Sequence record: ON528746
Source: Shigella phage ESh36
Strand: one strand, 5' to 3'
Length of the DNA stretch: 64,000 nt
Numbering within the stretch: position 1 is the first letter of the stretch; every line of letters starts with the position of its first letter. The notes under the pieces were generated by a model. It ran no database searches. It saw only the letters and a program-made list of their open reading frames with translations, and was not told the origin of the DNA. Both the position numbers and the translations under genes were made by a program. Below are positions 27,795 to 61,683 of the stretch, in pieces.

Positions 27795-27824
27795 ATACTA
27801 TCACAAAGGAACCATGCTGTAAAC
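27795..27824 (-). promoter_or_regulatory. early promoter upstream of the 8th 30.x ORF
   Basis: Minus strand GTTTAC-N18-TAGTAT immediately after a terminator hairpin. Confidence 0.55.
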
Positions 27825-27844
27825 AACTTTGTGCAATCTTTGGA

Positions 27845-27872
27845 AAATAAAAAAGGACTCCCGAAGGAGTCC
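27845..27872 (-). terminator. rho-independent terminator after the 9th 30.x ORF
   Basis: GGACTCC-TTCG-GGAGTCC on minus strand followed by TTTTTTATTTT. Confidence 0.75.
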
Positions 27873-27877
27873 TCAAC

Positions 27878-28054
27878 TTATGCTTTCTGCTTACCAAAAC
27901 GAGAAGCATCATCTCGAAGAACCGCACGTGCTCGGCGCATGATCTTCTCAACAGTTTGATTGATACGAGAGTTCGACCCACGCTTGTAGCCAGCGCGTTT
28001 AGAATCACCAACTTTCTTTTCAACTGCTTTCTTTGCTTTAGCTTGTTTTGCCAT
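27878..28054 (-). CDS. small basic protein (30.x cluster, 9th ORF)
   Basis: 58 aa from ATG at 28054 (MAKQAKAKKAVEKK...); the track extends it to 72 aa; terminator hairpin directly downstream. Confidence 0.45.
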   Translation of the reverse strand: MAKQAKAKKAVEKKVGDSKRAGYKRGSNSRINQTVEKIMRRARAVLRDDASRFGKQKA

Positions 28055-28450
28055 TATAAATTCTCTTTTAAATGAAAATGCAGGACTTATTGGCATTGCC
28101 TGCGCAAGCCCTCAAGGGGAACATAGGTTTTGAATATTTACCGACAGGATAACCATAAACCCGTCAACATACCTTATAGCTCTTATCTGTTGCACACCGT
28201 TAGCTTAAAGGTTCCGGGTTCGATTTCTCGAGGATAAGATATATACTGATGGATATATAGGCCTTGAGGCGTACTCCCGATTGGCCATCACCTCGGGGTA
28301 GCATGCACTTGCCGCTATAAGAATAACATTCAAGAGGTACACCGTAAAACTGCCGGGGTCTTAAAACTATAATGATTCGCAAATCATTAATCAGACAGTT
28401 CGACGGCTCCTCGATTTTAGCTCACACTAAGGCAGTGAATCTCCAATAAA

Positions 28451-28699
28451 TTACTTCAGTGTTACCACAAAGTGACGAACTGCTTTTCGTGCAGCAGAAG
28501 CCAGAGGCTTAGCATATTTAAGTTCATCTTTTTCCTGAAGCTCAGCGGCTAATGCAGTTTGAGCAGGATTCAGATGTTTGAAATAACGCAGGATTTCAAG
28601 AGCTTCGGCTTCAACATCAATAGATGCGCCATAGTTTTCGTGACCATTATTCCATGCGTTTCGTTGCAGTTCAAGAGCGTGTTGTAATTGTTTAATCAT
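28451..28699 (-). CDS. rIII: rIII lysis-inhibition accessory protein
   Basis: 82 aa; MIKQLQHALELQRNAWNNGHENYGASIDVEAEALEILRYFKHLNPAQTALAAELQEKDELKYAK; T4 rIII length and position. Confidence 0.85.
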   Translation of the reverse strand: MIKQLQHALELQRNAWNNGHENYGASIDVEAEALEILRYFKHLNPAQTALAAELQEKDELKYAKPLASAARKAVRHFVVTLK

Positions 28700-28846
28700 T
28701 TAAAAATTCTCGTTAGAGATTAAAACTCGGTAGTCACGTTCTTCTGAATTTCATCTTCTTTCGACAGATCTCTCAGTTGTAGACTACCACGTAGAATTGT
28801 TCGGTTAACTTATTATTCCGACACCCAATTCATATTATTATTTATA

Positions 28847-29182
28847 TCACTTATAAAGACACGGAATAGCTTTATAGTGACAGGTAACGAATTTTTGTTT
28901 AATTTCTTTTGGCTGCTTAAGTCCCAAGGCTACAAAAGGATGCGGAACGTTTCGAATTTGACCAACTGGAAGAGAAGTCAAATCACCAACTTCACAGAAA
29001 CCTTCAGGAACATCAGGACCAACAGAGTGAACTACACACAGTTCAGGAACTTCACCTTGAACACGTTTACCGATAATAAGTCCTGATTCTGTAACTTCTT
29101 CATCACCGGCTTGTGCAGGTTCAGAAACTAAAATAACATACTCACCGACAGCACGAATTGGTAGCTGTTGTACTTCAGACAT
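28847..29182 (-). CDS. 31: co-chaperonin gp31 (GroES analogue)
   Basis: 111 aa from the second Met; [62 protein letters not shown]. Confidence 0.9.
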
Positions 29183-29238
29183 CATTTTTCCTTTTTGTTA
29201 ACAGATGAATTAATAATAACAAATAATTCTTAAAGCAT

Positions 29239-29547
29239 TTATTTACCAATAAATTGAAGCAAATGCTCAGCTTTCATACCATTAACGGAAATCAATTTGT
29301 CAATAGAAAAACCTCGCCACACGCCAAGCTCAACATCAAATACTGGAATCATATCAGTAGATTCTTTCCGAGCAGATTCAGTCAATTTACCAGTTTGCAT
29401 GGTTGGCATAAAGTCCGCATCACGAGTGCCTTTCATAGTACGAATAGTACCATCAGACTTTTCAAAAACTACGTTTGAAACCCCCATGGACAATTTAGTT
29501 TTCAAAATTTCACGAATTGCTATTTTTTGTTCAGTCGTCAGTTTCAT
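29239..29547 (-). CDS. hypothetical protein (T4 31.1 position)
   Basis: 102 aa ORF. Confidence 0.5.
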   Translation of the reverse strand: MKLTTEQKIAIREILKTKLSMGVSNVVFEKSDGTIRTMKGTRDADFMPTMQTGKLTESARKESTDMIPVFDVELGVWRGFSIDKLISVNGMKAEHLLQFIGK

Positions 29548-29784
29548 TTATTTACCTATCACAGTTTTAATATGAGTTGTTCCACGTTCTTTAAGTGTGG
29601 AAAGCAGTTTTTGGCATTTTTCTAAATCAGATTTCCAACTATATGGATTATCAATACAAACCCAGTTTGACTTATAATACTGTTTCCATTTAGAGAAAAA
29701 ATATTTCTTATACTCTACAGCAAATGAAATGTTCTCATTAGAATAAGAACTAATTGCTGTGAGTTGTACCAAACGAAATTTCAT
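29548..29784 (-). CDS. hypothetical protein (T4 31.2 position)
   Basis: 78 aa ORF. Confidence 0.5.
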   Translation of the reverse strand: MKFRLVQLTAISSYSNENISFAVEYKKYFFSKWKQYYKSNWVCIDNPYSWKSDLEKCQKLLSTLKERGTTHIKTVIGK

Positions 29785-30365
29785 TATTCACCGCAGAATT
29801 CGTTGATATTTTCCCAGTTTAACTTATTCAAGTTTTTCTTAGGAACATTAAACACTTCAATACCTGCATTTCGCAGAATATCATCCCAGCCAGGTTTATT
29901 TTTATCGTATGTTTCGCAATAAACCAGCTTTTTAATACCAGATTGAGCTATCGCTTTTGCACAATCTGGGCAAGGAGAAAGTGTTACATACATAGTAGCA
30001 CCTTCAATTGAAGAACCGTTTCGTGCAGCAAACAAAATCGCATTTAGTTCAGCATGAATTTCATTTTTAGACGACCATTCAGAGTGAGCGCTGCGGTGTT
30101 CTTTCGCCAAAACAAAACGATCAGTTGAACCAAATGATACACATTCGGGCTTATGACCTTGAATGATAGTATGTTTAGGCTTATTCAGCAACCAACCTTG
30201 CTCAGCAGCATAATCGCAGCAATTCACACCACCTGCCGGAGAACCATTATATCCGGTAGAAATAATACGTCCATTCTTTTCAATTACTGCTCCTACCTTC
30301 CAGGAGCAACATTTTGATTCTTGTGATACTAAATATGCAATTTGAAGTACTGTACTCGCTTTCAT
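29784..30365 (-). CDS. cd: dCMP deaminase
   Basis: 193 aa; zinc-binding deaminase motifs HAELNAI and PCPDCAKAI. Confidence 0.9.
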   Translation of the reverse strand: MKASTVLQIAYLVSQESKCCSWKVGAVIEKNGRIISTGYNGSPAGGVNCCDYAAEQGWLLNKPKHTIIQGHKPECVSFGSTDRFVLAKEHRSAHSEWSSKNEIHAELNAILFAARNGSSIEGATMYVTLSPCPDCAKAIAQSGIKKLVYCETYDKNKPGWDDILRNAGIEVFNVPKKNLNKLNWENINEFCGE

Positions 30366-30700
30366 TTCATAATCACCAGATAAGCAGATTTAGCAGTTTC
30401 AACACGATAAATTTCGTGACGAAGTTTAGTTATACTTTTAATAACAGAACTAATTATATTCTGCCCATCTTTAAAGCGGTTTTTCTTATCAATAAAAATT
30501 GCGCCAACCATCTTTTTGTGAAGCTCAACTGGGTACTTCGTCACAATAATAGCATCATACACAGAAGGATGAATACTATTCACTAGAGTGTCATTCATTA
30601 AAGTTATTCTAATGAACTGTGCTGTTTCAGAGTCAAGCGCTCTATGATCGCCAGTATCATTTTCAAGACAATTATCAATTATATCAGTTAAATTCATCAT
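30362..30700 (-). CDS. hypothetical protein (cd.x cluster, 1st)
   Basis: 112 aa ORF. Confidence 0.5.
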   Translation of the reverse strand: MMNLTDIIDNCLENDTGDHRALDSETAQFIRITLMNDTLVNSIHPSVYDAIIVTKYPVELHKKMVGAIFIDKKNRFKDGQNIISSVIKSITKLRHEIYRVETAKSAYLVIMK

Positions 30701-30933
30701 AGTACGCCATACACCCTTTGTGCTTCAACTAATCCATCAAAATCCAATTTGAGATGTGTTATTTGGTCACCATCACCTGGATTCACAATTACTAATACTG
30801 AACGAGGAGTTTCGGTAATAACACGAACCGATGTTTCTGGAAATCGTTCAGAAACCTTATTTACCAATTCCTGAGCAAATAGTTTAACTTTTTCTTGGAA
30901 TTCTTTAACAGTAATTGGTTTTTCACTTAGCAT
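30697..30933 (-). CDS. hypothetical protein (cd.x cluster, 2nd)
   Basis: 78 aa ORF. Confidence 0.5.
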   Translation of the reverse strand: MLSEKPITVKEFQEKVKLFAQELVNKVSERFPETSVRVITETPRSVLVIVNPGDGDQITHLKLDFDGLVEAQRVYGVL

Positions 30934-30995
30934 TTTGTTTTCCTCATTTGTTTTGGTAGAGCTATAATATCACAACTCTACCATAAAGTAAACCA

Positions 30996-31277
30996 TTAAA
31001 TTGCTTTGAATTCTGATGTCTGTGATTCAAAGCGAATATCGCCTTTGATGACTAGCTCAGCATCAAGACCAAATACGACAATGATATGCGCGGAACCCGG
31101 ATACAGCGTAATTGCAATAGAATCCACCTGGTCTGGAAGCAAAGTGTTCAATACATGAGTCACTTGAGCATGAATTCGAAGCTCGGCTGCGTTATCAAGC
31201 TTTTCAAACATATTATTAGCGATAATTTGACTAAACACTACTTCTACGATTTTAGAATAAGTCGGAAACATATTCAC
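30996..31277 (-). CDS. hypothetical protein (cd.x cluster, 3rd)
   Basis: 93 aa ORF. Confidence 0.5.
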   Translation of the reverse strand: MNMFPTYSKIVEVVFSQIIANNMFEKLDNAAELRIHAQVTHVLNTLLPDQVDSIAITLYPGSAHIIVVFGLDAELVIKGDIRFESQTSEFKAI

Positions 31278-31466
31278 CCCACATAATTTTCTTCAAGCCA
31301 ATTAATAACATCCAACGCATTATCAAAAGTTGAACCATCTACTATGTCTTCTGTTTCATAATCAAGAATATCTAAGTCTATTCTTCCATCAACAATAGGC
31401 CATAAACAAAATAGATATTTCTTTTCTTTTTCAATTTTATCGCAAAGTTGATAAATCTTTTCTATG

Positions 31467-31474
<8 letters not shown>
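31274..31474 (-). CDS. hypothetical protein (cd.x cluster, 4th)
   Basis: 66 aa ORF. Confidence 0.45.
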
Positions 31475-32889
<1,415 letters not shown>

Positions 32890-32892
32890 TTA

Positions 32893-33123
32893 TTATTTCT
32901 CAACCAATGATTGAATATAATCATGCAGGTCTTTAGATGCTTTACCCCACTTATTTTGGTATTCATTTTTAAGATTAGCACGAGATTGAGCTAATAAAAC
33001 ATCATTAGTTGGAGGTAAAGATTCTAACCGCTGAATCTGGCGTCCGTAAATCATTGCAGCCATCTCGGATTCATAAATCAATCCTTTGAGATGTTCAAAT
33101 TGATGCCATGAAATCATTTGCAT
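32893..33123 (-). CDS. hypothetical protein
   Basis: 76 aa ORF overlapping the o-spanin ORF by 10 nt. Confidence 0.4.
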   Translation of the reverse strand: MQMISWHQFEHLKGLIYESEMAAMIYGRQIQRLESLPPTNDVLLAQSRANLKNEYQNKWGKASKDLHDYIQSLVEK

Positions 33124-33413
33124 TTATCCTCTTTTAACTCTTGGCGATAATAACATATCATAGTTTTCTGATCATGTACATATCGTTTTACATCATTAAG
33201 CCAAATACGAAATTCCTGAGAATCTTCAAATGGCATACCGACCCAAGCTTTACCATCAATAACTTTAACTTGCCAGGATAGTTTAGCTTCATCATATGAC
33301 TTTATTTGTACTGGCCAATTAGGATGAACTGTTTCTTTCTTTACTTCTAGAGGCTTTGTCGAACAACCAACTAGAAGACCAATAGATAATATTACTGCTG
33401 ATAGTCTAATCAT
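33114..33413 (-). CDS. pseT.2: o-spanin (outer-membrane lipoprotein)
   Basis: 99 aa; signal peptide with lipobox MIRLSAVILSIGLLVGC; adjacent to i-spanin-like ORF. Confidence 0.65.
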   Translation of the reverse strand: MIRLSAVILSIGLLVGCSTKPLEVKKETVHPNWPVQIKSYDEAKLSWQVKVIDGKAWVGMPFEDSQEFRIWLNDVKRYVHDQKTMICYYRQELKEDKCK

Positions 33414-33763
33414 TTAGAAAGGTCCTGGATGTCTTCTGCGAACTTGTTGAAGGAGTTGTTGATTTGTTTTTCAACCAATCCTGGCTTATGAGCCACCACA
33501 TCCGCCTTCTTTGCATCTTTGCGCAGTTTTTCATTTTCACGCTCAATAGCAGCAATTGCCTCACGATTTTTATTATTCATCGCATCAATATAATTATACT
33601 GAATTCGCAAATTATTTAATGCTAAAGCGTTTTCATTGGCCGTTTTTGTAATTTCTACAACAGACGTTTCTAATCTTTCAATTTTATTTTTTAAAATTAA
33701 AGAAGTTCCGCCTAATGCAATTACAATTAATAGCAAACCTGCTGTCGTATTACTTAATTGCAT
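33410..33763 (-). CDS. pseT.3: i-spanin (inner-membrane spanin subunit)
   Basis: 117 aa; N-terminal TM helix (AGLLLIVIALGGTSLIL) then coiled-coil-like region. Confidence 0.65.
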   Translation of the reverse strand: MQLSNTTAGLLLIVIALGGTSLILKNKIERLETSVVEITKTANENALALNNLRIQYNYIDAMNNKNREAIAAIERENEKLRKDAKKADVVAHKPGLVEKQINNSFNKFAEDIQDLSK

Positions 33764-34260
33764 AAAGTTTTAATAACCTCTATAATATCGTCTTGAGAAA
33801 GACCGTTAATTAAAATATGATGTTCAGCAGGAGATTTAGAAATTTTAAAGCATGCCTCAACATCTTCTGCCATATCCGATGCGCTACGATTTGGATTACT
33901 AATTCCAAGACGATGTTTTCCCGTCAAAGGATTAACGATGATATAGCATTTACAGTTGTTAATATGAACATTAGGTTGAGTCTGATTAATGAACACATCA
34001 CAATCATATTTCGCAAGCTGATTTTCTAAAAATACTTTCATCTCCTCAACTGCATCAGGAAGCATATCACGGGCTTGCTCAAGACGACGATTTCGATATT
34101 CTTTAATAGTCGTTTTCCGCTTAACTTGCTTAGCTAAATCTTTCTTAAGATCGGTGATATATCCAACTCGACGATTTCCTTTAAATACAGAAATCCCATC
34201 TGTAGTATCACCGTATGCTTCAACGACCATCTCAGTAGTAATAAGCTGCAAATCCATCAT
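33754..34260 (-). CDS. alc: Alc, inhibitor of host transcription
   Basis: 168 aa from ATGATG at 34260, preceded by GAGGGG; T4 Alc length and position; early promoter at 34290-34319. Confidence 0.75.
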   Translation of the reverse strand: MMDLQLITTEMVVEAYGDTTDGISVFKGNRRVGYITDLKKDLAKQVKRKTTIKEYRNRRLEQARDMLPDAVEEMKVFLENQLAKYDCDVFINQTQPNVHINNCKCYIIVNPLTGKHRLGISNPNRSASDMAEDVEACFKISKSPAEHHILINGLSQDDIIEVIKTLCN

Positions 34261-34289
34261 AAAGCCCCTCATGTTATGTCAGTAAGATT

Positions 34290-34319
34290 ATTATAACACA
34301 GCATAAGGGACTTGTAAAC
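34290..34319 (-). promoter_or_regulatory. early promoter for alc
   Basis: Minus strand GTTTAC-N18-TATAAT with the same conserved leader as the promoter at 20580-20609. Confidence 0.6.
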
Positions 34320-34322
34320 AGC

Positions 34323-35910
<1,588 letters not shown>

Positions 35911-35940
35911 AATAAAATGGGCCTTGCGGCCCACTCCTTA
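35911..35940 (-). promoter_or_regulatory. hairpin-split ribosome-binding site of denA (and possible nrdB terminator)
   Basis: mRNA reads UAAGGAG-UGGGCC-GCAA-GGCCCA-UUUUAUU-AUG; the Shine-Dalgarno is 23 nt from the AUG in linear sequence but about 7 nt if the GNRA-tetraloop hairpin forms. Confidence 0.5.
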
Positions 35941-36440
35941 AAAGTATTTTTTAAAACTCATCATAACTTTATCATCAACATCATTATCAATCTGTGCAAC
36001 AAGGTAAGATGACAATTCTACTTCTTGTGGCGCAGATTGAACATTATCAGAATTAAGGTATTCACGAATCCAAGGATATGGATGTTTAACCGGAGCATCG
36101 GTAATTGGGCATGGAAGACCACACTGTTTCATACGAGATACAGTTAAGTAATCAATAAAGCTCCACATGCTATTTGTATTTAATCCAGGAACATCACCAT
36201 CTTTAAATAAATGAACTGCCCAGTCTTTTTCTTGACGGTTAACTTCCATGAAAATATCAACTGCTTCTTGTTCACACTCTTGGGCGATTTTAACCCATTC
36301 ATCACCATCAGTGCCAAGTTGAAGTTGACGAATAATATATTGGGTGCCTTTAAGGTGAAGCTGCTCATCACGTGCAATGAACTTCATAATCTTGGCATTA
36401 CCTTCCATGATTTCCATGTTCTTATGGAAGTTAAAGGTAC
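35938..36440 (-). CDS. nrdB: ribonucleotide reductase small subunit NrdB, exon 2
   Basis: Continues NrdB after the exon 1 stop; ...TFNFHKNMEIMEGNAKIMKFIARDEQLHL... matches E. coli NrdB FAFAERELMEGNAKII; 3' splice site placed by homology and is approximate. Confidence 0.8.
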
Positions 36441-37027
36441 CGTTATGTTCGATTGAGCTCGCTAATTCTCAACCCGTTCTCTTATGAACTGCTACATATT
36501 ACTATGCAGACCAGACTATATCACAATCCCAGAGGGATTCTCCCCATTTCGAGTCGCTTGACCCTACGTCCGAAGACTAGTCGTTGAACCTTGCTTTGCA
36601 ATTGTCGCCGTGCCATCGTTTATATGTTGATGGTGATAAATCTTTCTTATCACAATATGGACAATTCAATTGAATTCTATTTGGATTTAATTTACATCTG
36701 TCATTATGTTTTAGATAAAATCCAGGACCTTTACCAATGTGACCGCAGAAATCACATGTGATTTCTTTTTGTGCAGTCTTAACCATTTCTAATGTTTTTG
36801 CTGATGTCTTTTCTTATGGTCTTCCATCAGAATCTTTAGGTATAGGTCCGTTAGCATCTATCCAAATTTTTCTATAGTTCAATTGTGCATCCTCTTAAAA
36901 GTATAATCATATTTATGTTATACTAATTAAAGGTGCAAGCAAAACCTTGGCTGCTAGTTTTCCTATAAAGGACTTTCCAGCAATTAAAGGAGTTTTCGAT
37001 AAACGTTACCGTTTAAAGGCGCATTTT
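36441..37027 (-). mobile_element. group I intron interrupting nrdB (approx. 587 nt)
   Basis: NrdB frame stops (TAA) straight after ...FYVSFA and resumes about 590 nt downstream; proposed 5' exon ends in U and intron ends in G, as group I rules require; contains a decayed HNH endonuclease ORF. Confidence 0.7.
36577..36882 (-). pseudogene. I-TevIII: decayed intron-encoded HNH homing endonuclease (I-TevIII-like)
   Basis: Reads (L/M)NYRKIWIDANGPIPKDSDGRP-TAA-EKTSAKTLEMVKTAQKEITCDFCGH...CPYCDKKD...; HNH-type N-terminus then in-frame stop, HNH catalytic core missing, zinc-finger-like tail retained. Confidence 0.6.
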
Positions 37028-37703
37028 ACGCAAAAGATACATAAAAACGAATAGCTTCTAAGGCATTAATAACGTGCAAACAGAGGTAAAGAGATTTCAT
37101 TAGCTCACGCTTCCAATATGTCTCATGCTCAATAGCATCTTCAATAACGTCTTCGTCTGCATTAATTTCTTTTTGGTATTCGATATCAGCTTTAGCGTTT
37201 TCCCAATAACGAGTTTTAATCAGAACATCATCATAATAGCGACCGATAGATTCAGCACGTTTCATGATAGCTTCATCTAATACAATCTCATCAAATACCT
37301 TTGACGGATCAGTATAAAGATTTCGCATGATATGAGTATATGAACGACTGTGAATAGTTTCACTAAAAGTCCATGTAGCAACCCATGTATCAAGACTTGG
37401 GTCTGAAAGCAATGGCATAAGTACAGCAGACGGCGCACGACCTTGAATACTATCAAGTAATGATTGATACTTCAGATTATTAGTAAAAATATTTTGTTGA
37501 TACTGAGGAAGCTTATTAAATTGAGTAGCATCCATCATCAAGTTTACTTCTTCAGGACGCCAGAAAAACGAGAGCTGACGTTCAATAAGTTCTTCAAATA
37601 CCCTATGTCGTTGAATATCATAACGCGCAATTCCAAGACCAGACCCAAAAAACATGGGTTCTGTTAAAACATCAACCTGTTTAGTATTAAAAACTGTACT
37701 CAT
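37028..37703 (-). CDS. nrdB: ribonucleotide reductase small subunit NrdB, exon 1
   Basis: 225 codons ending ...LHVINALEAIRFYVSFA; ferritin-like di-iron protein. Confidence 0.85.
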
Positions 37704-44248: not shown

Positions 44249-44491
44249 TTAAACAGACTTTTTCACAATTTTCCAATCAACTTTAAACTGTTCAACATCA
44301 GAATGGTAAATCCAGAATCCTGCGCTTTCTCCATCCTCATAAAGAGGGCATCCATCACATTCATCTTCCCATCCCATATCACGCAAAAGACGTTCAGCTT
44401 TTTCAACAAGTTCAGAATTTTTACCGATGATATTAAAATACCATTTACCTCTAACTTCTGAATCTTTAATACTCTGGCGTTGTAATCTCAT
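44249..44491 (-). CDS. hypothetical protein (frd.x cluster)
   Basis: 80 aa ORF. Confidence 0.45.
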   Translation of the reverse strand: MRLQRQSIKDSEVRGKWYFNIIGKNSELVEKAERLLRDMGWEDECDGCPLYEDGESAGFWIYHSDVEQFKVDWKIVKKSV

Positions 44492-44546
44492 TTTATTCTC
44501 CTTAGTTGATAGGGTAATAGTATCACACTACTACCCTACCTGTAAA

Positions 44547-44956: not shown

Positions 44957-45205
44957 TTATTGTTCAATCAGTCCCATGTAAAATTCTGCATCTTCAGAAT
45001 CCATACCATCACAATATTCATTAGCCATAAAGCGAGTGAGGTCTTCAAGAGGACCTTCAATAACGATTTGAATACTCCAAAACTTAGAATCTTGTACGCT
45101 TGTGATACTAAGTTCAGGATAACGATTACGAATAATTTCTTCAATATATTCAAAATCAACGATGTCAATATCAACTTTAGCCATATTATTTTCCTCTTTA
45201 ATCAT
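44957..45205 (-). CDS. hypothetical acidic protein
   Basis: 82 aa ORF directly downstream of a terminator plus early promoter module. Confidence 0.5.
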
Positions 45206-45227
45206 CAGCAGTATTGCCGATAGTTGT

Positions 45228-45257
45228 ATAATACCACAGTTCTTATAGTATGTAAAC
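45228..45257 (-). promoter_or_regulatory. early promoter downstream of the gene 32 terminator
   Basis: Minus strand GTTTAC-N18-TATTAT with A/T-rich upstream element AAAAATTTTTCACAAAACG. Confidence 0.6.
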
Positions 45258-45274
45258 CGTTTTGTGAAAAATTT

Positions 45275-45306
45275 TTGAAATAAAAAAGGGGACCTCTAGG
45301 GTCCCC
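45275..45306 (-). terminator. rho-independent terminator after gene 32
   Basis: GGGGACC-CTAGA-GGTCCCC on minus strand followed by TTTTTTATTTC. Confidence 0.75.
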
Positions 45307-47572: not shown

Positions 47573-47580
47573 TATTCACC

Positions 47581-48498: not shown

Positions 48499-48527
48499 AT
48501 GAACCTCGTTCAATTAGTGAGATTTCT

Positions 48528-48557
48528 ATTATATACTATCTAAATCTTAAAGTAAAC
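48528..48557 (-). promoter_or_regulatory. early promoter for rnh
   Basis: Minus strand GTTTAC-N18-TATAAT about 30 nt upstream of the rnh ATG. Confidence 0.6.
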
Positions 48558-48560
48558 AGG

Positions 48561-48568
48561 TATAAATA
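48561..48568 (+). promoter_or_regulatory. late promoter (TATAAATA) for gene 34
   Basis: Exact TATAAATA 35 nt upstream of the gene 34 ATG. Confidence 0.7.
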
Positions 48569-48602
48569 CTTATTATTGAAAACACAATAGGAGCCCGGGA
48601 GA

Positions 48603-52472: not shown

Positions 52473-52480
52473 GAGGTATT

Positions 52481-53596
52481 ATGGAAAAATTTATGGCAGA
52501 GTTTGGACAAGGATATGTCCAAACGCCATTTTTATCGGAAAGCAATTCAGTAAGATATAAAATAAGCATAGCGGGTTCTTGCCCGCTTTCTACTGCGGGG
52601 CCATATGTTAAATTTCAGGATAGTCCCGTTGGAAATCAAACATTTAGTGCAGGTCTTCATTTAAGAGTTTTTGACCCTTCCACCGGAGCATTAGTTGATA
52701 GTAAGTCATATGCTTTTTCGACTTCAAATGATACAACATCTGCTGCTTTTGTTAGTTTCATGAATTCTTTGTCAAACAATAGACTTGTTGCTATATTAAC
52801 TAGCGGAAAGGTTAATTTTCCTCCTGAAGTGGTATCTTGGTTAAGGGGAGCAGGAACTTCAGTTTTTCCATCAGATTCAGTATTGTCAAGATTTGACGTA
52901 TCATATGCTGCTTTTTATACTTCTTCTAAAAGAGCTATTGCATTAGAGCATGTTAAACTAAGTAATAGAAAAAGCACAGATGATTATCAAACTATTTTAG
53001 ATGTTGTATTTGATAGTTTAGAAGACGTCGGAGCTACAGGATTTCCTAAAAGAACATACGAAAGCGTTGAGCAATTTATGTCTGTGGTTGGTGGAACTAA
53101 TAACGAAATTGCGCGATTGCCAACTTCAGCTGCTATAAGTAAACTTTCTGACTACAATTTAATTCCTGGTGATGTTCTTTATCTTAAAGCACAACTATAT
53201 GCTGATGCTGATTTACTTGATCTTGGAACTACAAACATATCCATTCGTTTTTATGATGCATCAAATGGATATATTTCCTCTACCCAAGCTGAGTTTACTG
53301 GGCAAGCTGGGTCTTGGGAATTAAAAGAAGATTATGTAGTTGTTCCTGAAAATGCAGTAGGATTTACGATATATGCACAAAGAACTGCTCAAGCAGGTCA
53401 AGGCGGCATGAGAAATTTAAGCTTTTCTGAAGTATCAAGAAATGGCGGCATTTCAAAACCTGCCGAATTTGGCGTCAACGGTATTCGCGTTAATTATGTC
53501 TGTGAATCGGCTTCACCTCCAGATATAATGGTACTTCCTACACAAGCCTCTTCTAAAACTGGCAAAGTGTTTGGGCAAGAATTTAGAGAAGTTTAA
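52481..53596 (+). CDS. 35: long tail fibre hinge protein gp35
   Basis: 371 aa; position after 34. Confidence 0.85.
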   Translation: MEKFMAEFGQGYVQTPFLSESNSVRYKISIAGSCPLSTAGPYVKFQDSPVGNQTFSAGLHLRVFDPSTGALVDSKSYAFSTSNDTTSAAFVSFMNSLSNNRLVAILTSGKVNFPPEVVSWLRGAGTSVFPSDSVLSRFDVSYAAFYTSSKRAIALEHVKLSNRKSTDDYQTILDVVFDSLEDVGATGFPKRTYESVEQFMSVVGGTNNEIARLPTSAAISKLSDYNLIPGDVLYLKAQLYADADLLDLGTTNISIRFYDASNGYISSTQAEFTGQAGSWELKEDYVVVPENAVGFTIYAQRTAQAGQGGMRNLSFSEVSRNGGISKPAEFGVNGIRVNYVCESASPPDIMVLPTQASSKTGKVFGQEFREV

Positions 53597-53600
53597 ACTG

Positions 53601-53627
53601 AGGGAGCCTTCGGGTTCCCTTTTTCTT
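53601..53627 (+). terminator. terminator after gene 35
   Basis: AGGGAGCC-TTCG-GGTTCCCT hairpin (one G-U pair) followed by TTTTTCTTT. Confidence 0.7.
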
Positions 53628-53635
53628 TATAAATA
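53628..53635 (+). promoter_or_regulatory. late promoter (TATAAATA) for gene 36
   Basis: Exact TATAAATA 24 nt upstream of the gene 36 ATG, immediately after the gene 35 terminator. Confidence 0.7.
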
Positions 53636-53658
53636 ATATTAAAATAAAGGGGCATATA

Positions 53659-54321
53659 ATGGCTGATTTAAAAGTAGGTTCAACTGTAGGTGGATCTGTC
53701 ATTTGGCATCAAGGAAATTTTCCATTGAATTCAGCCGGTGACGATGTACTCTACAAATCATTTAAAATATATTCAGAATATAATAAACCGCAGGCAGCTG
53801 ATAACGATTTCGTTTCTAAAGCTAATGGTGGTACTTACGCCGCGACTGTTCGATTTAATGGAGGAGTACATGTTCCTACTATAGGTAGTAGTCAACAGTG
53901 CGGTGTTTATCCAGGTAACGGTGATGCAGCTACCTTTGCTATGGCAAATATTGACATCGTTTCGTGGAATGGTATTGGTTTTAAATCATCACAAGGTTCA
54001 GCAGACCGAACTGTTGTAATTAACGCTCGTACCGGTGATATCAGCACTAAGGGCGGTTTTTATGCAACTGGTCCTGTCCGTTCTAACGCTACTGCTCCTA
54101 TAGCAGCGAATGACCTTACTAGAAAGGACTATGTTGATGGAGCAATAAATACTGTTACAGCAAATGCGAACTCTAGAGTGTTGCGTTCTGGTGACACTAT
54201 GACAGGTAATTTAACAGCGCCAAACTTTTTCTCACAGAATCCTGCATCTCAACCTTCACACGTTCCACGATTTGACCAAATCGTAATTAAGGATTCTGTT
54301 CAAGATTTCGGCTATTATTAA
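53659..54321 (+). CDS. 36: long tail fibre distal connector gp36
   Basis: 220 aa; late promoter at 53628-53635. Confidence 0.85.
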
Positions 54322-54329
54322 GAGGACTT

Positions 54330-57314
54330 ATGGCTACTTTAAAACAAATACAATTTAAAAGAAGCAAAACTGCAGGTCAACTTCCTGCTGCTTCAGTATT
54401 AGCCGAAGGTGAATTGGCTATTAATTTAAAAGATAAAACAATTTTCACAAAAGATGACTCAGGTAGTGTTATAGAATTAGGTTTAAAATATGGAGGAACT
54501 ATAAATGGGTCTTTAGAGGTTACAGAAAATATAACTGGAGCTTTAATTGGAAATTCTAGCACAGCTACTAAATTGCAAACACCTAGGAAAATTAATGGTA
54601 TATCTTTTGATGGGTCAAAGGACATTACCCTAACTCCATCTGACATAAATGTCAATAGCACAACATTTATAAAAAATAATGGTGAATTACCTACTGATGC
54701 TAATTTAGATACGTATGGGCCCATTGAAGAATATCTTGGTGTTTGGTCGAAATCTACTTCAACAAATGCGCAACCAGCAAATAAATTCCCAGAAGAAAAT
54801 GCCGTAGGTGTACTAGAAGTATTTGTGGCCGGCCAATTTGCTGGCACTCAGCGTTATACTGTAAGATCTGGTAACGTCTATATTCGTTCCTTATCTGCTA
54901 AATGGAATGGCGTCGATGGTCCATGGGGTGTGTGGCGTAATGTTCAAGCGTCAACTCGTCCACTTTCACAAACGATTGACCTTGATAGCTTGGGAGAATT
55001 AGAACATTGTGGCTTATGGCGAAACAGTTCAAGCGCAATCGCATCATTTGATCGCCATTATCCAGAAGAAGGATCAGCCGCACAAGGATTTTTAGAAATA
55101 TTTGAAGGTGGTTTATACACAAGAACGCAGCGTTATACTACCCGCATGGGTATGGTTTATACTCGTTGTCTCGCTGCTGCATGGGATGCTAGTGCACCTA
55201 AGTGGGAGGAATGGAAGCAGGTTGGTCATGGCACACCAGCGACTTTCTATGATGGAGATCTGAATGATTTTAAAACTCCTGGGTTATATAACATTTTAGG
55301 CACTGATGCCGTTATTAACTGTCCTACTGGTGAAGGTTTACCAGCCGTTATTGTTGGTTTGCTGGAAGTTAAACAGCGTGCTTCTGGCGGTGCTATTTTC
55401 CAAAAATTTACTACTGCCGGAACGGGTGAAACTACGCGATCTCGCGTGTTTGAACGTGCGATGACAAATAACATCTGGGGAAATTGGTACGAAGTATATA
55501 CGTCCTATTCTATGCCGATCACTCTGGGTATGGGTGGTATTAAAACTCAATTAGCGGAGCTAGATTGGCAAACATTTGATTTTGTTCCTGGTAGTATGTT
55601 TAGCGTTCCTTTGAACAAAATAAAGAACATGCCAGCAAATATGGATTGGGGGACGATTGACGGAAACCTGGTTATGTTTTCCGTTGGTCCTAGCGAACAC
55701 ACTAGCACAGGGCGTACTGTTCAGGTTTGGCGCGGTACTGTATCCCAGACAAACTACCGTTATTTTGTCGTTCGTGTGTTCGGTAATTCTGGAAATAGAA
55801 CTTGCACAGTCCGCCGTGTTGTTCTTGAAGATGGTCGCCACACATGGACAGCTCAACAAGATTTTAATGGTGCTGTTAACTTCGGTGCTCCTACCAATTT
55901 TAACTCTACTGTTAACCTTAATAACACTACCACATTTAAAACAGAAGTTAAATTCCGCTCATTGAATGCATTCCGTATGTATGGCGGAAAATTTGGTACA
56001 ATTTTCCGTAATGATGGAGAGAGTCTTTATATTCTTTCCACCGACGAAAATGATCAAGATGGAAACTTTAATACAAATAGACCTTTCCGTTATGAATTAA
56101 GAACTGGTGATGTTACTTTGGGTGGTACTAGTGGTGCTAACGTTTTAAAATTAAAACGCGATTCTCTCACCGCATTTTTTGGTGGTGATATTAATATAAA
56201 AGGCTTGATGACTTTTGATGCCGGACGTTTAGGATCACGAGATTATTTTAAATTTAACCATTGGGGTGATAGTAATAATGCGCGCGATAACATTATTCAG
56301 TTAGAAGACAGCAAAGGCGTTCATTTTTCCACTGAACGTACTTTAGCGACTGGTGCAATTAAAACTAAATTCTTTGGTGAAGTTGAATCCGAAGGTAGAT
56401 TGATTATTAAACGTCCGGGTGATTCTATTGTATTATCAACAACTGCTGGTAATGCTTTGCATATTCGCGGTGACATAGACGGGACTGGTAACTGGTATAT
56501 TGGCAAGGGTGGTGCTGATAATTCGCTAGCATTTTATAGCTATGCTACTCAGGCGGCAGTACATATCACAAACAATGGTGAGATTTCGCTAAATCCACAA
56601 AATATCGCAATGGTTAACGTTAACCGCGATCGTGTACACATTAACGGTTCTGGATGGATTGCTAGACAACCGGGTGATTGGGGCAACCAATGGCGAGTAG
56701 AAGCTCCATTATTCGTCGATCATGGTTATGTTTCACAGGATTGTTATTATCCAATTATTAAAGGAAAAAGTGTAATCACCAATCAAGGGTTTATAACTGC
56801 CGTCGATCTTGGTATTCGTCGTGTCCCTAACAATTGGGGGCAAGCAATTATTCGTGTTGGATCTGCAGAGGCATCGCCAGCGGCTGGACACCCTAACGCG
56901 GTATTTGAATTTCATTACGACGGTACTTTCTATTCTCCTGGTAATGGTAACTTTAACGATGTGTATATTCGTTCCGATGGTCGTCTTAAGATTAATAAAA
57001 AAGAGCTAGAAAACGGAGCACTTGAAAAAGTATGCCGACTGAAAGTTTATATTTACGATAAGGTTAAGTCTATTAAAGACCGTAGTGTTATTAAACGCGA
57101 AGTTGGTATTATTGCTCAGGACCTTGAAAAGGAATTACCGGAAGCTGTGTCTAAAGTTGAAGTTGATGGTTCTGATGTTCTGACAATTTCTAACTCCGCT
57201 GTGAATGCTCTTTTAATTAAGGCTATCCAAGAAATGAGCGAAGAAATTAAAGAATTAAAAACGCCTTTCTTCACTAAAATTGCTCGCAAAATTAGTAATT
57301 ATTTTAAATTCTAA
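54330..57314 (+). CDS. 37: long tail fibre distal subunit gp37 with C-terminal intramolecular chaperone domain
   Basis: 994 aa; N-terminus [33 protein letters not shown]; C-terminal ~110 aa ([18 protein letters not shown]...[19 protein letters not shown]) resembles self-cleaving chaperone domains of tailspike/endosialidase proteins. Confidence 0.9.
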
Positions 57315-57320
57315 CAACAA

Positions 57321-57337
57321 GGGGCTTTGCCCCCTTT
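57321..57337 (+). terminator. weak stem-loop between genes 37 and 38
   Basis: GGGGC-TTTG-CCCC then TTT, immediately before the gene 38 GGAG ribosome-binding site. Confidence 0.4.
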
Positions 57338-57347
57338 GGAGATAATT

Positions 57348-58148
57348 ATGGCAGTAGTTGGTGTTCCCGGTTGGATTGGAAGTTCATCCGTAAATGAAAC
57401 GGGTCAGCGCTGGATGAGTCAAGCGGCTGGTCAATTAAGATTGGGTGTTCCTTGCTGGATGAGTCAATTTGCAGGTCGCTCACGAGAAATTATTCATACC
57501 GTAACAGCAAACCATAACTTTAATGGTCAATGGTTCCGCGACCGTTGCTTTGAAGCTGGCGGTGCACCCATTGTATTCAATATTGTTGGTGATATCGTTT
57601 CTTATTCTAAAGATGTGCCACTTTTCTTTATGTATGGGGATACGCCTAATGAATATGTTGTTCTTAATATTCATGGTGGTGTTCATATGTGGGGTCGTGG
57701 TGGTAATGGTGGATACACTCACTCAGGAGGCGACGGTAACGGTACACAAGGCGGTCATGTTATTCAAAATGATATCGGTGGACGGCTTCGTATTTGGAAC
57801 TACGGTGTTATAGCTGCTGGCGGTGGCGGTGGCGGTGGTATTGCATATCGTCCACACTCAGGGGCAAACTGGCAAGATATCGGCGGCGGCGGCGGTCGAC
57901 CTTTCGGTGGTGCTGGCGGCGGCCGTTATTCCGGTGGTGCTGCTTCGTATGAAGGTCCGGGTGGTGGTTATGACTATGGTAACGCACACTCCGGCGCAGG
58001 TGGTAATGCTGGTGCTGCTGGTCAGAATGCATGGTCTGACGGCGGTAAAGTTCTTAAAGTTGGTGTTGGTGGTGCGTCTGGTCATGCAGTGTTTGGATCT
58101 TCTCCAACTTGGGGTGCTGTTGGAACAATTTACGGACCAAGAGTATAA
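57348..58148 (+). CDS. 38: gp38 receptor-recognising adhesin (T2 type, glycine-rich motifs)
   Basis: 266 aa from ATG at 57348 ([50 protein letters not shown]); poly-Gly motifs (GGGGGGG, GGGGG) separating variable segments; unlike the T4 gp38 chaperone. Confidence 0.85.
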
Positions 58149-58178
58149 TTTGAATAAATATCCTTAAAAGGAGGGTCT

Positions 58179-58835
58179 ATGGCAGCACCTAGAATATCAT
58201 TTTCGCCCTCTGATATTCTGTTGGGTGTTCTAGATCGCTTGTTCAAAGATAACGCTACCGGGAAGGTTCTTGCTTCCCGGGTAGCTGTCGTAATTCTTTT
58301 GTTTATAATGGCGATTGTTTGGTATAGGGGAGATAGTTTCTTTGAGTACTATAAGCAATCAAAGTATGAAACATACAGTGAAATTATTGAAAAGGAAAGA
58401 AATGCACGCTTTGAATCTGTCGCCCTGGAACAACTCCAGATAGTTCATATATCATCTGAGGCAGACTTTAGTGCGGTGTATTCTTTCCGCCCTAAAAACT
58501 TAAACTATTTTGTTGATATTATAGCATATGAAGGAAAATTACCTTCAACAATAAGTGAAAAATCGCTTGGAGGATATCCTGTTGATAAAACTATGGATGA
58601 ATATGCAGTTCATTTAAATGGACGTCATTATTATTCCAACTCAAAATTTGCTTTTTTACCGACTAAAAAGCCTACTCCCGAAATAAATTACATGTACAGT
58701 TGTCCATATTTCAATTTGGATAATATCTATGCTGGAACAATAACCATGTACTGGTATAGAAATGATCATATAAGTAATGACCGCCTTGAATCAATATGTG
58801 CTCAGGCGGCCAGAATATTAGGAAGGGCTAAATAA
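58179..58835 (+). CDS. t: holin T
   Basis: 218 aa; single N-terminal TM (VAVVILLFIMAIVWY) and large periplasmic domain; T4 t length and position after 38. Confidence 0.9.
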   Translation: MAAPRISFSPSDILLGVLDRLFKDNATGKVLASRVAVVILLFIMAIVWYRGDSFFEYYKQSKYETYSEIIEKERNARFESVALEQLQIVHISSEADFSAVYSFRPKNLNYFVDIIAYEGKLPSTISEKSLGGYPVDKTMDEYAVHLNGRHYYSNSKFAFLPTKKPTPEINYMYSCPYFNLDNIYAGTITMYWYRNDHISNDRLESICAQAARILGRAK

Positions 58836-59108
58836 TTATTTGTTCGTATACATCTCTAGATATCGATATACACCCTCAAAACCCTCGTTGAATTCGTCGA
58901 TGAGGGTTTTCTTATCTTCTTGAGTTAATTCAGAAACAATTTTACGGAATGAATTCTGATTTAACTTTCTACCTTCATGCGTTACTCCAATCTCAGTCAG
59001 AAATGCAATAAAATTAGCACGATTCTCAACAATATCTTCTCGGGAAAATTTAATCAAAATAGACGCAACAGTAATAATTTCACGAACTGTATCAATATTT
59101 TTATTCAT
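58836..59108 (-). CDS. asiA: AsiA anti-sigma70 factor
   Basis: 90 aa; MNKNIDTVREIITVASILIKFSREDIVENRANFIAFLTEIGVTHEGRKLNQNSFRKIV. Confidence 0.9.
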   Translation of the reverse strand: MNKNIDTVREIITVASILIKFSREDIVENRANFIAFLTEIGVTHEGRKLNQNSFRKIVSELTQEDKKTLIDEFNEGFEGVYRYLEMYTNK

Positions 59109-59114
59109 TAACTA

Positions 59115-59273
59115 TACCACTCAATTAGTTGACTTTACTATAATATCATCAGACGCTTGATTTGTAAACTGGTCTGTGGTATTTTCTTCAAAAATTTTTT
59201 CTACGAATTCCTTGAACGACTTACGTTCCTGAGCTGCATTATGCTCGATTACCTTTTCAAGATTATGACTCAT
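59115..59273 (-). CDS. small protein (asiA.1 position)
   Basis: 52-codon ORF MSHNLEKVIEHNAAQERKSFKEFVEKIFEEN...; ATG overlaps the upstream stop (ATGA); below track cutoff. Confidence 0.4.
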
Positions 59274-59548
59274 TCGAAATAATCTTCAATTTCATAATCA
59301 TGGACATAAATCATTATAGTTTTTAATACATCATCAATACTTTTTCCTGGAGCTGGAATTACGTAAAAATATCCCGCCTTTGAATTATCTTTATAAGTTC
59401 CAACCAAGAAATCATTATTCTCGAGATGTAGTTCTTCAACTAATTCATTAACAATTGAGTGGTATAAATTTGGTAGTAACTTGTATAGCTTTTCTAGAAT
59501 ATCAATTTTGATTGTGTATTGAACCACAGACTGAGAATCAATAATCAT
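59270..59548 (-). CDS. arn: probable Arn (anti-restriction nuclease, McrBC inhibitor)
   Basis: 92 aa acidic ORF between asiA and motA; length and position match T4 arn; assignment is positional. Confidence 0.6.
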   Translation of the reverse strand: MIIDSQSVVQYTIKIDILEKLYKLLPNLYHSIVNELVEELHLENNDFLVGTYKDNSKAGYFYVIPAPGKSIDDVLKTIMIYVHDYEIEDYFE

Positions 59549-59631
59549 AGACCTTCCCCTTATGTTTCTGTTTGCGATTAGATTCTTTAAACGCTTTCTT
59601 CTTATCCTTATGGACAGAAGCTTTATTAAAA

Positions 59632-59850
59632 TTATGTTTTGCGACTAAATTGTTCATAGTGCTGAATTACCTCTCTTAAACATTTGCATGTGAATGAAAA
59701 CTTTTTAGCTACACCACATTCAAATATATGTTCTCTTAAATCGCGTGTGTCAGTATATCCCATCTCAACGATAAAATGTCTTATTAAATTTTTATCTTTA
59801 TCATTGAGAGAATTAAAATAATCGGATTTTGAATTAATTTCCCTGGCCAA
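59632..59850 (-). CDS. hypothetical protein
   Basis: 72 aa ORF. Confidence 0.45.
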   Translation of the reverse strand: MAREINSKSDYFNSLNDKDKNLIRHFIVEMGYTDTRDLREHIFECGVAKKFSFTCKCLREVIQHYEQFSRKT

Positions 59851-60130
59851 ATTGAATAACCTTTAGTTGACGTTTTAGTTCTTTTATCATTTCTTCGTTC
59901 ATCGCAATATAAAGATCGCGTAAAGCAGGTTTTAGCATTCCATTTACTGGAGAACTAAATGGGCACACATAATCTTTTCCTACGAGCTTTTTAGTTAATT
60001 CCATGTCACAGAACTGAAATGCCGGTTCATTGGCATAAATTCCCCAATTAGTTGACATCATTTTATTGGCATATTCTAGTGCCTGGATTTGATTCTTAAT
60101 TCCATCAATTTGAAACTTTTTAATATTCAT
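59834..60130 (-). CDS. hypothetical protein
   Basis: 98 aa ORF. Confidence 0.45.
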   Translation of the reverse strand: MNIKKFQIDGIKNQIQALEYANKMMSTNWGIYANEPAFQFCDMELTKKLVGKDYVCPFSSPVNGMLKPALRDLYIAMNEEMIKELKRQLKVIQFGQGN

Positions 60131-60591
60131 TAGTAAAGGTCCTCAGAGTAAAGTTCTTTTTCACTACCACCGCGTTCAATACGTACTTGTCCGGCGTAAG
60201 TTGCAATAATCATTGCTTCTTCACGTGTCCAATAATTACTATATTGGTCAATAAACCCTTGGTCATCATCACAAACTTGTTGAGTAACTAATTGAGGTTT
60301 AACTACATCTAAAACTTCTGCCATATCTTTAGAATAATGACGAGCACCCGGAATAACAAGAGTTCGTCCATCTTTTAATTTAAAACGGTTGGCTGCGCAA
60401 ACAATTCGTCGTTGATATTTTTGGTTTTCGTCCCAATACGCAGTCTGCCAACAGATTTCAGGAACTTCTGTAAGAATATCTTCTTCTGTGCATTTATAAC
60501 CATGCGCTTTAAATTTTTCAACAAGACTTTCTGGAGTTTCACGAGATAAAGGCACATTCAGCATTTTTAAACGATTAATAAATGGGTTCAT
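60130..60591 (-). CDS. hypothetical protein
   Basis: 153 aa ORF. Confidence 0.5.
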
Positions 60592-60917
60592 TTAAACCAT
60601 CCTTTAATACGCTGCCACAAATTTTTCTGTTGAGCTTTATTAACACCAATTGAGCGAATAACTGGTTGAGATTCCTGGAATTCTTTATAATCAGCAAGGT
60701 AAATTTCGTAAGCTGCATCCGTAAATGAACTTATCGCCGCCATAAAATTATTGCGAATACCTACTGGAGCATCTTTACTTTCACGAATAATCATGTATTT
60801 ACCAGTCTTAATCTTTACGATAGTTCCAAGATAAGCTCCATGGTACCAGATGTCCCACCCCTCTTGAGTGGGTTCTGCACAACGACGAAGTTCATTAACA
60901 ATTTCTAACTTGTTCAT
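60588..60917 (-). CDS. hypothetical protein (motA.1 position)
   Basis: 109 aa ORF immediately downstream of motA. Confidence 0.5.
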
Positions 60918-60927
60918 TATTTATTCC

Positions 60928-61563
60928 TCACAGTTCAGATGCTACGGTGATTACTGCTTCAATGTTTTCTGCCGAGCGTTTAATGTCAAGATACACATTA
61001 CCGTTTTTAGCGATTTTACATGACATTCCGATATCAGTAAATTTCTGAATATGGTGTTCCATCATTTTGTATCCAAAAATTCGCATATTTCCATTGTTGT
61101 TAATTTCAAAATTGCGAATTCCGTGAGTGCGTTTTTCTAAAATAGCAAGATAATTACTGCGGTAAGTTTCAACCTTTTTAAGAATAAATCCATTTTCATC
61201 TAAAAGTTTTAACATGAAGTCTTTATCTTCTTCCATATCGGAAGTAATCTCACGAGCTTTACGAGTTGCTCGTTTTTTCAGCAGTTCAGGAGCATTTTCC
61301 TGTGCATATAAAGTTGCCGCATTTGAAATAATATCCTGAGCTTCACCAGTAATGATTAATCCATCACCAGATTTCTCTACCAGGCCTTTTTTAATCAATA
61401 CCCCAATATTACTATTAACTACTGCATTACCTAAATCTGGATGCACCTCACGAACTTCTGCAGCTGTAATGAAATCTTTCTTAGCAATGGTAATTAAAAT
61501 CGCAGCAGTTTTTTCATTCAGAACATCGTTAGAAGCTTTGATGATGTAAGTTACTTTAGACAT
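60928..61563 (-). CDS. motA: MotA middle-transcription activator
   Basis: 211 aa; MSKVTYIIKASNDVLNEKTAAILITIAKKDFITAAEVREVHPDLG...; early promoter upstream. Confidence 0.9.
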   Translation of the reverse strand: MSKVTYIIKASNDVLNEKTAAILITIAKKDFITAAEVREVHPDLGNAVVNSNIGVLIKKGLVEKSGDGLIITGEAQDIISNAATLYAQENAPELLKKRATRKAREITSDMEEDKDFMLKLLDENGFILKKVETYRSNYLAILEKRTHGIRNFEINNNGNMRIFGYKMMEHHIQKFTDIGMSCKIAKNGNVYLDIKRSAENIEAVITVASEL

Positions 61564-61604
61564 TTTCTAATCTCCGTAATTCTGTATCAGTAGTTGATAG
61601 TTGT

Positions 61605-61634
61605 ATAGTACCACAGTATGCTTTGGTTGTAAAC
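61605..61634 (-). promoter_or_regulatory. early promoter for motA
   Basis: Minus strand GTTTAC-N18-TACTAT with the same A/T-rich upstream element as the promoter at 45228-45257. Confidence 0.6.
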
Positions 61635-61649
61635 CGTTTTGTGAAAAAT

Positions 61650-61683
61650 TTTTGAAATAAAAAGGGAGAGCCTCGGCTCTCCC
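61650..61683 (-). terminator. rho-independent terminator after gene 52 and the small membrane ORF
   Basis: GGGAGAGC-CGAG-GCTCTCCC on minus strand followed by TTTTTATTTC. Confidence 0.75.

Follow-up and report, generated by a model that had tools for sequence, protein, structure and literature searches.

The early promoters of bacteriophage T4 combine an upstream (UP) element, a -35 element, a TGn motif and a -10 element with extra consensus regions (Hinton 2010, PMC2988021), and their consensus includes GTTTAC at -36 to -31, an A-rich stretch at -40 to -44 and a GT-rich stretch before -12, while the terminator downstream of gene 32 is kept in five of six T4-like genomes (Nolan et al. 2006, PMC1524935). 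A composite of stem-loop terminator and early promoter was named PeSL (promoter-early stem-loop), a term of the Krisch laboratory, in phages RB49 and phi1, where recombination between such cassettes was shown to give deletions and mini-circles, with crossovers mapped between the -10 element and the Shine-Dalgarno (SD) sequence or ATG, and with the documented events joining neighbouring cassettes within approximately 0.4-1.5 kb (Arbiol et al. 2010, PMC2839356). The description was extended to the T4/PST pair as TTTACW-N17-TAYWAT with a stem-loop just upstream of the promoter, an AT-rich region between the two, and then SD and ATG (Comeau et al. 2014, PMC4122927). Here, three cassettes of this kind were analyzed on the minus (early) strand of a stretch of 64,000 nucleotides from Shigella phage ESh36 (sequence record ON528746; the whole stretch is called the window, and positions are counted along it). 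The three sites are very probably T-even terminator and early-promoter units, orthologous to PeSL, among which sites 2 and 3, together with a copy downstream of denB, form a paralogous sub-family subject to short-patch ectopic conversion, and exchanges at the cassette edges lead to gain or loss of small open reading frames (ORFs).

Neither this class of element nor its presence at the three loci is new: besides the literature on PeSL and early promoters, the public record of Yersinia phage fPS-65 carries a "terminator" and a "predicted early promoter" at each of the three orthologous positions, and in the record of GiZh the terminator after gene 32 is marked. The window belongs to a Tequatrovirus (T4/T2-like), and a 3-kb probe from it matched about 500 such phages at 95-99% identity, the nearest being Shigella phages ESh16 and ESh34 (99.2%). 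ORF calling and comparison with the annotated T2 and T4 genomes placed the sites in three minus-strand gaps, 30.9/30.8 (site 1), gene 32/frd.3 (site 2) and motA.1/motA (site 3); the orthologous positions of the three promoters are occupied in T4, T2 and four other genomes. Segments of approximately 41-45 kb from T2, T4, ESh34, BCH953P4, NIC06P2 and fPS-65 served as comparators, supplemented by eight phages at site 2 and by RB14 at site 3, which gave 15 genomes at site 2 and about 11 sequences at site 3. An exact-pattern scan of IMG/VR returned 10 loci, too few for a population survey, and was the source of an insertion at site 3 described below.

The same layout was found at 27795-27873, 45228-45306 and 61605-61684: a perfect GC-rich stem of 7-9 bp, TTTTT(T)ATTT, A/T-rich DNA, GTTTAC, an N18 spacer ending in TGn, and TAnTAT, followed by a leader of 27-43 nt with SD and ATG. 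The distance from hairpin to GTTTAC is 28-30 nt at all three sites and is spanned by A/T-rich sequence. The architecture proposed in an earlier note on this DNA is therefore real, although its GC-rich tetraloop applies to sites 1 (TTCG) and 3 (CGAG), the loop of site 2 (CTAGA) having 5 nt. The sequence features of intrinsic terminators are present at all three, with stems of 7-9 bp, T-runs of 5-6 T (then A and TTT) and hairpins starting 4-22 nt past a stop codon; the predicted folding energies were -16.4, -14.3 and -18.9 kcal/mol at sites 1, 2 and 3, with z values against shuffles of -4.1, -2.6 and -4.5, respectively. Agreement with the T4 early promoter (Pe) is exact in GTTTAC(A), the 17-bp spacing from TTTACA to the -10 element, TGn and TAnnnT; GTTTAC followed by N18 corresponds to the canonical 17-bp spacing when the -35 hexamer is read as TTTACA. 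A+T content is 72-80% in the 25 nt upstream of -35, and sites 2 and 3 carry UP-like A- and T-tracts, the register of which relative to the Escherichia coli UP consensus is approximate. Compared with described T4 early promoters and intrinsic terminators (PMC2988021, PMC1524935), the sites share GTTTAC at -36 to -31, TGn, TAnnnT, the A/T-rich UP region, the start consensus, the terminator after gene 32 and the orthologous positions; nothing essential differs, site 2 of the window being distinguished by a rare spacer and a TATTAT -10 element. Stem-loop and early promoter stand at each site in one intergenic region, in the order stop codon, stem-loop, AT-rich region, early promoter, SD and ATG, which fits the published T4/PST description of PeSL, the class named in the earlier note. 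The features are as follows, where terminator and promoter activity in this phage is predicted from knowledge of T4 and from annotation.

27854-27873, minus strand: site 1 terminator hairpin, 8-bp stem AGGACTCC / loop TTCG / GGAGTCCT, 4 nt past the 30.9 stop codon, then TTTTTATTTT; T-run at 27844-27853.
27795-27853, minus strand: site 1 early promoter P(30.8), T-run and A/T-rich region, GTTTAC at 27824-27819, TGa at 27803-27801, TAGTAT at 27800-27795.
45288-45306, minus strand: site 2 terminator hairpin after gene 32, 7-bp stem GGGGACC / 5-nt loop CTAGA / GGTCCCC, then TTTTTTATTT; T-run at 45278-45287.
45257-45252 and 45233-45228, minus strand: site 2 promoter elements GTTTAC and TATTAT, separated by N18.
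45251-45286, minus strand: site 2 block A, comprising T-run, UP-like A/T tracts, CACAAAACG and GTTTACA; 36/36 identical to 61628-61663.
45234-45251, minus strand: site 2 spacer atactataagaactgtgg, hypervariable across orthologues; a diverged post-denB-type haplotype found otherwise only in phage ECp13.
45219-45240, minus strand: site 2 block B, comprising ACTGTGG (with TGn), the -10 element TATTAT at 45233-45228 and the start region ACAACTATC.
61663-61684, minus strand: site 3 terminator hairpin after motA.1, 9-bp stem AGGGAGAGC / loop CGAG / GCTCTCCCT, then the T-run, TTTTATTT.
61596-61663, minus strand: site 3 early promoter P(motA), with block A at 61663-61628, GTTTAC at 61634-61629, spacer aaccaaagcatactgtgg, TACTAT at 61610-61605 and block B at 61617-61596.

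Both orientations of the hairpin loops occur in related phages (L001, L014, L017, L021, L022 and L026), the gene 32 loop being CTAGA or TCTAG and the motA.1 loop CGAG or CTCG. In each case one loop is the exact reverse complement of the other while the stem is unaltered, and loop orientation assorts independently of the spacer class at the promoter; this pattern suggests hairpin-templated inversion. No Rfam family reached the gathering score in the whole window, indicating that neither the cassettes nor a 153-bp indel described below are known RNAs. A reading of the cassettes as mobile elements resembling miniature inverted-repeat transposable elements was dropped, as the copies have unrelated hairpins and flanks, and inspection of the sequences by eye found no terminal repeats or target duplications.

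The motif GTTTAC-N15-TGn-TAnnnT occurs seven times in the window, always on the minus strand, against 0.06 occurrences expected, and nine minus-strand sites were obtained when a spacing of 17-19 nt was allowed. The architecture is a family signal, not peculiar to the three sites. A perfect hairpin with a T-run directly upstream is restricted to sites 1-3 among the early promoters of the window, several of which have no hairpin and had been overlooked in the earlier note. These nine promoters and one without TGn were aligned in register, giving 45 pairs. Sites 2 and 3 were the top outlier, with 29 of 30 positions identical upstream of -35 (mean of the 45 pairs 12.1, standard deviation 4.4). They share a 36-nt exact block, TTTTTATTTCAAAAATTTTTCACAAAACGGTTTACA, at 45286-45251 and 61663-61628, and a 22-nt block with one mismatch, ACTGTGGTA(T/C)TATACAACTATC, at 45240-45219 and 61617-61596, so that overall 74 nt align without gaps at 85% identity. 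Each 20-nt core of these blocks was found only at these two places in the window, even at 3 mismatches, with 0.01 expected. The near-identical core that had been noticed at these two sites is thus confirmed, and the similarity is not limited to the promoter consensus, since identity reaches beyond both -35 and -10. The two sites have different hairpin stems and unrelated spacers (3/11). Site 1 agrees with sites 2 and 3 at 20-21 of 30 upstream positions and, in spacer and downstream region, at background level; it appears from these alignments to be a generic relative only.

Evidence of exchange between loci came from the spacer of the frd.3 promoter (site 2). In the 15 genomes compared, its flanking blocks are conserved, while at least four classes of spacer, unrelated to one another, were found between them. 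The first is motA-type: RB14, EH2 and IsaacDaniel carry aaccaaagcatactgtgg at frd.3, identical at 18 of 18 positions to the spacer of the motA promoter, which is itself the same in every genome examined at that locus. The second is of the type found at the promoter downstream of denB, matched at 17 of 18 positions by HY01 (ataccacaaggactatgg); diverged relatives are present in sb3, in ESh34, and in the window together with ECp13. A third class, atccttgtccttccatgg and its variants, is present in T2, BCH953P4, NIC06P2, teqhal, fPS-65 and GiZh, the fPS-65 variant matching the ndd.5 promoter spacer at 10 of 13 positions, and a fourth, aagcataaagctttatgg, in T4. Chimeric promoters, made of the frd.3 locus with motA or post-denB spacers, therefore exist, and in RB14 the motA and frd.3 cassettes have an exact run of 59 nt in common.

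Quantitative comparison singled out the same locus; promoter loci were assigned for it by manual orthology, as automatic clustering fused the motA and frd.3 promoters because they are so alike. The mean pairwise difference over the first 13 spacer positions was 6.4 at frd.3 and 0-1.7 at eight other promoter loci, and the five best cross-locus spacer matches in a comparison of seven genomes all involved frd.3. The window and ESh34 showed no difference over 1.5 kb, followed by nine differences within 51 bp (45216-45266) covering the site 2 promoter core, about 17 times the local background. Database records with at least 95% identity to the 96-nt cassette numbered 490 of 675 for site 1, 275 of 545 for site 3 and only 1 of 529 for site 2.

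The third member of the sub-family of sites 2 and 3 lies downstream of denB, just past the high end of the window, and was seen in related sequences (L001 42294, L003 43087, L014 1327, L015 39915, L016 39400 and L017 39258). The spacer of this promoter is conserved and the ORF that follows it varies by genome (68-aa, 87-aa or ndd.6-type). The area is that of the ndd.4/.5 exchange in Figure 6A of Comeau et al. (2014, PMC4122927).

The earlier note had proposed a survey of the flanks in related genomes; gene content was found to differ at some cassette edges, those immediately next to site 2 being constant. At site 1, a 385-bp stretch with 30.8 and the promoter that follows it, P(30.7), is missing from T2. 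The deletion junction lies in the repeat GGAGAATAAAA(A)TGAA, which supplies the ribosome-binding site (RBS) and start of both 30.8 and 30.7, in agreement with the crossover zone from -10 to SD/ATG of the PeSL mini-circles. The features involved are:

27404-27432, minus strand: P(30.7), early promoter without hairpin, GTTTAC at 27432-27427, N17, TATTAT at 27409-27404; lost along with 30.8 in T2.
27767-27777 (30.8), 27367-27377 (30.7) and 44491-44501 (frd.1), minus strand: RBS/start repeat GGAGAATAAAA(TG), the first two copies forming the junction of the T2 30.8 deletion.

In T4 and fPS-65, a 72-bp indel falls at the third copy of this repeat (frd.1).

Around site 2 the neighbourhood of frd.2 and frd.1 is variable. 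BCH953P4 (L015 18376-18632, corresponding to window position ~44550) has an extra ORF of 84 aa (phrog_4423) between frd.2 and the frd.1 promoter, ending exactly at the -35 element of P(frd.1); in the window, frd.2 itself runs into this element with its stop codon, TAG (taGTTTAC). On the other side, T4 has segG between 59 and 32, and the window has no segG. The ORFs flanking site 3 are constant in the complete genomes examined, the six comparators being colinear within 1.5 kb on each side. An insertion was found at this site in the metagenomic IMG/VR contig 3300045988_128797 (L008, 1287-1700), where the motA.1 hairpin and a motA-type promoter are followed by an ORF of 75 aa, a second early promoter and then motA; the ORF belongs to phrog_10955, of unknown function, and a 23-nt direct repeat is common to both leaders.

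The simplest reading of the spacer pattern would be repeated short-patch, non-crossover copying between paralogous cassettes, i.e., ectopic gene conversion, in tracts of at most ~75 bp within the conserved blocks. In the mechanism proposed, an intrinsic terminator (hairpin and U-run) would end transcripts from the upstream gene (30.9, gene 32 or 52-motA.1), and its T-run would pass directly into the UP-like region of an early promoter of the strong sigma-70 type (UP / TTTACA / TGn / TAnTAT), from which 30.8, frd.3 or motA would be transcribed anew as soon as the cell is infected. The conserved blocks (36 nt through -35, and ~22 nt around the -10 element and the start) could serve as homology arms for T4 recombination-dependent replication and repair, and conversion would then copy the stretch between them from locus to locus, with the frd.3 promoter often the recipient. 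A crossover between distant copies would delete or duplicate 16-17 kb with essential DNA, and non-crossover products are therefore the only ones expected to survive there. Allelic recombination may then spread the spacer variants, and exchange at the cassette edges between neighbouring units would gain or lose single small ORFs.

Several observations weigh against this explanation. No exact donor was found for the spacer of site 2 in the window, which agrees with the post-denB type at 10 of 13 positions, and ordinary allelic recombination with an ECp13-like phage, as opposed to ectopic copying within this lineage, could have brought it in. Some of the identity in the blocks (GTTTAC, TGTG and CTATCAAC) is family-wide consensus kept by selection, and a motif of the CTATCAAC type recurs after the -10 element of other promoters. 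The samples comprise 15 genomes at site 2 and about 11 sequences at site 3, and terminator efficiency and transcript start sites in this phage are predictions from the sequence.

The diversity of site 2 might alternatively reflect ordinary homologous recombination alone, in which divergent alleles are acquired from other phages (for example by co-conversion when SegG cuts gene 32) and different loci are not copied into one another. The haplotype of the window at this site is shared with ECp13 and not with the 99%-identical ESh34, segG sits between 59 and 32 and its product targets gene 32, and the independent assortment of loop orientation and spacer class also fits such exchange. It leaves the origin of the alleles unexplained, however, as two classes are identical or nearly so to spacers of other loci, and an 18/18 match is beyond the reach of mutation alone; allelic exchange as the sole source is thus considered unlikely.

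The earlier note had read the three sites as direct repeats 16-18 kb apart, and as such as substrates for mutual deletion, mini-circles or module exchange. Deletions and mini-circles between PeSL cassettes have indeed been demonstrated in RB49 and phi1, and the 36- and 22-nt blocks constitute usable homology. No rearrangement joining sites 1, 2 or 3 to each other, including a 16-18 kb deletion, was found in the six comparator genomes; in each of them the DNA from site to site is colinear with the window except for small local indels. Genes established as essential in T4 genetics lie in both intervals, 31 between sites 1 and 2, and 32, 33 and 34-38 between sites 2 and 3. Moreover, the PeSL events in the literature took place between neighbours within ~0.4-1.5 kb, and site 1 has no more than generic similarity to the other two. 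Exchange of this long-range kind is accordingly very improbable, and what stands of the proposal that the cassettes are recombination substrates is the presence of motA or post-denB spacers at the frd.3 promoter and the small-ORF indels at the edges. Convergence alone, in which selection toward an optimal T4 early promoter made sites 2 and 3 alike with neither shared descent nor exchange, can draw on the T4 consensus beyond -35 and -10, on the unrelated spacers of the two sites in the window and on the recurrence of CTATCAAC at other promoters, but it is most improbable of all, given that the 29/30 upstream identity is 3.9 standard deviations above the other 44 pairs, which are under the same selection, and that the little-constrained spacers match across loci in RB14, EH2 and IsaacDaniel (18/18) and in HY01 (17/18).

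Regarding the choice of recipient under ectopic conversion, SegG targets gene 32, and it may be speculated that site 2 is preferred because SegG breaks fall next to it in genomes that, like this one, have no segG. A wider proposal is put forward only tentatively, namely that T-even early-promoter cassettes evolve in concert, the frd.3 promoter being repeatedly rewritten from at least two donors (motA and post-denB) by ectopic conversion over 16-20 kb, and that the locus may be a hotspot owing to SegG breaks in gene 32 during mixed infections. If this were true, the neutral spacer would be a natural reporter of ectopic repair in T4.

Relative to the PeSL described in T4-type phages, the sites also share small-ORF indels with crossovers between -10 and SD/ATG, as in the T2 30.8 junction and the L008 insertion. 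They differ in that sites 2 and 3 flank core genes (32 and motA) instead of ORFan clusters, and in that the copies of the site 2/3 type would undergo non-crossover conversion of the spacer rather than ORF shuffling. Conversion, motA, frd and gene 32 are not mentioned in the text of either PeSL paper (PMC2839356, PMC4122927), and no relevant account of conversion between early promoters of T4 turned up in the searchable literature covered; a literature search for genome-wide transcription start site or Term-seq data of T4 likewise found none. The promoter-conversion pattern is thus a modest new detail relative to the PeSL papers and the literature searched. Interlocus gene conversion and concerted evolution, for example in bacterial rRNA operons, offer a parallel in the non-reciprocal copying between dispersed paralogues with conserved homology blocks as borders. 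The tracts here, unlike those, are tiny (at most ~75 bp), the repeats are regulatory cassettes and not genes, and one locus is the preferred recipient. Like the morons of lambdoid phages, which are ORFs with their own promoter and terminator, the L008 insertion is a small accessory ORF that carries its own transcription signals; here, however, composition is T4-like, and insertion would proceed by homology at shared regulatory cassettes and not by illegitimate recombination.

The cassettes themselves are textbook T4 gene organization, and no new annotation category is called for. The results are evidence of sequence exchange of regulatory cassettes between distant loci without genome rearrangement, which broadens the PeSL idea from the shuffling of ORFs to the homogenization of promoters. 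The spacer of the frd.3 promoter could furthermore provide a simple assay, readable from sequence, of ectopic recombination in T-even phages, and phylogenies or typing schemes built on intergenic regions call for caution.

The genes downstream of the three sites are:

27435-27767, minus strand: gene 30.8, 110 aa, Pfam Phage_30_8, downstream of site 1; missing in T2.
44957-45184, minus strand: gene frd.3, 75 aa, Pfam Phage_FRD3, downstream of site 2.
60928-61563, minus strand: gene motA, 211 aa, Pfam MotA_activ and MotCF, downstream of site 3.

The earlier statement that each cassette precedes a small ORF of unknown function fails at site 3, where the gene is motA.

A second near-identical pair of early promoters, also overlooked before, was found on the minus strand at 20557-20609 and 34267-34319, with 91% identity over 53 nt from the -35 element through the 5' untranslated region to the SD, and with unrelated upstream regions. 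The first copy precedes an ORF of 96 aa (20258-20548) and the second precedes alc. In spacer and -10 element the 20609 copy is an exact match to the T4 alc promoter, and the window's own alc promoter has diverged; the two may be another conversion-prone pair. In the interval between rIII and 30.9 (~28171-28325), the window, ESh34 and fPS-65 carry an unusually GC-rich insertion of 153 bp that T2, T4, BCH953P4 and NIC06P2 lack. It contained no ORF and gave no Rfam or tRNA match, and its predicted fold was no better than shuffles (z about -0.9). The largest repeat family of the window consists of three tandem copies of ~288-300 nt with 78-79% identity on the plus strand (6993-7868), which are presumably coding repeats in a structural gene.

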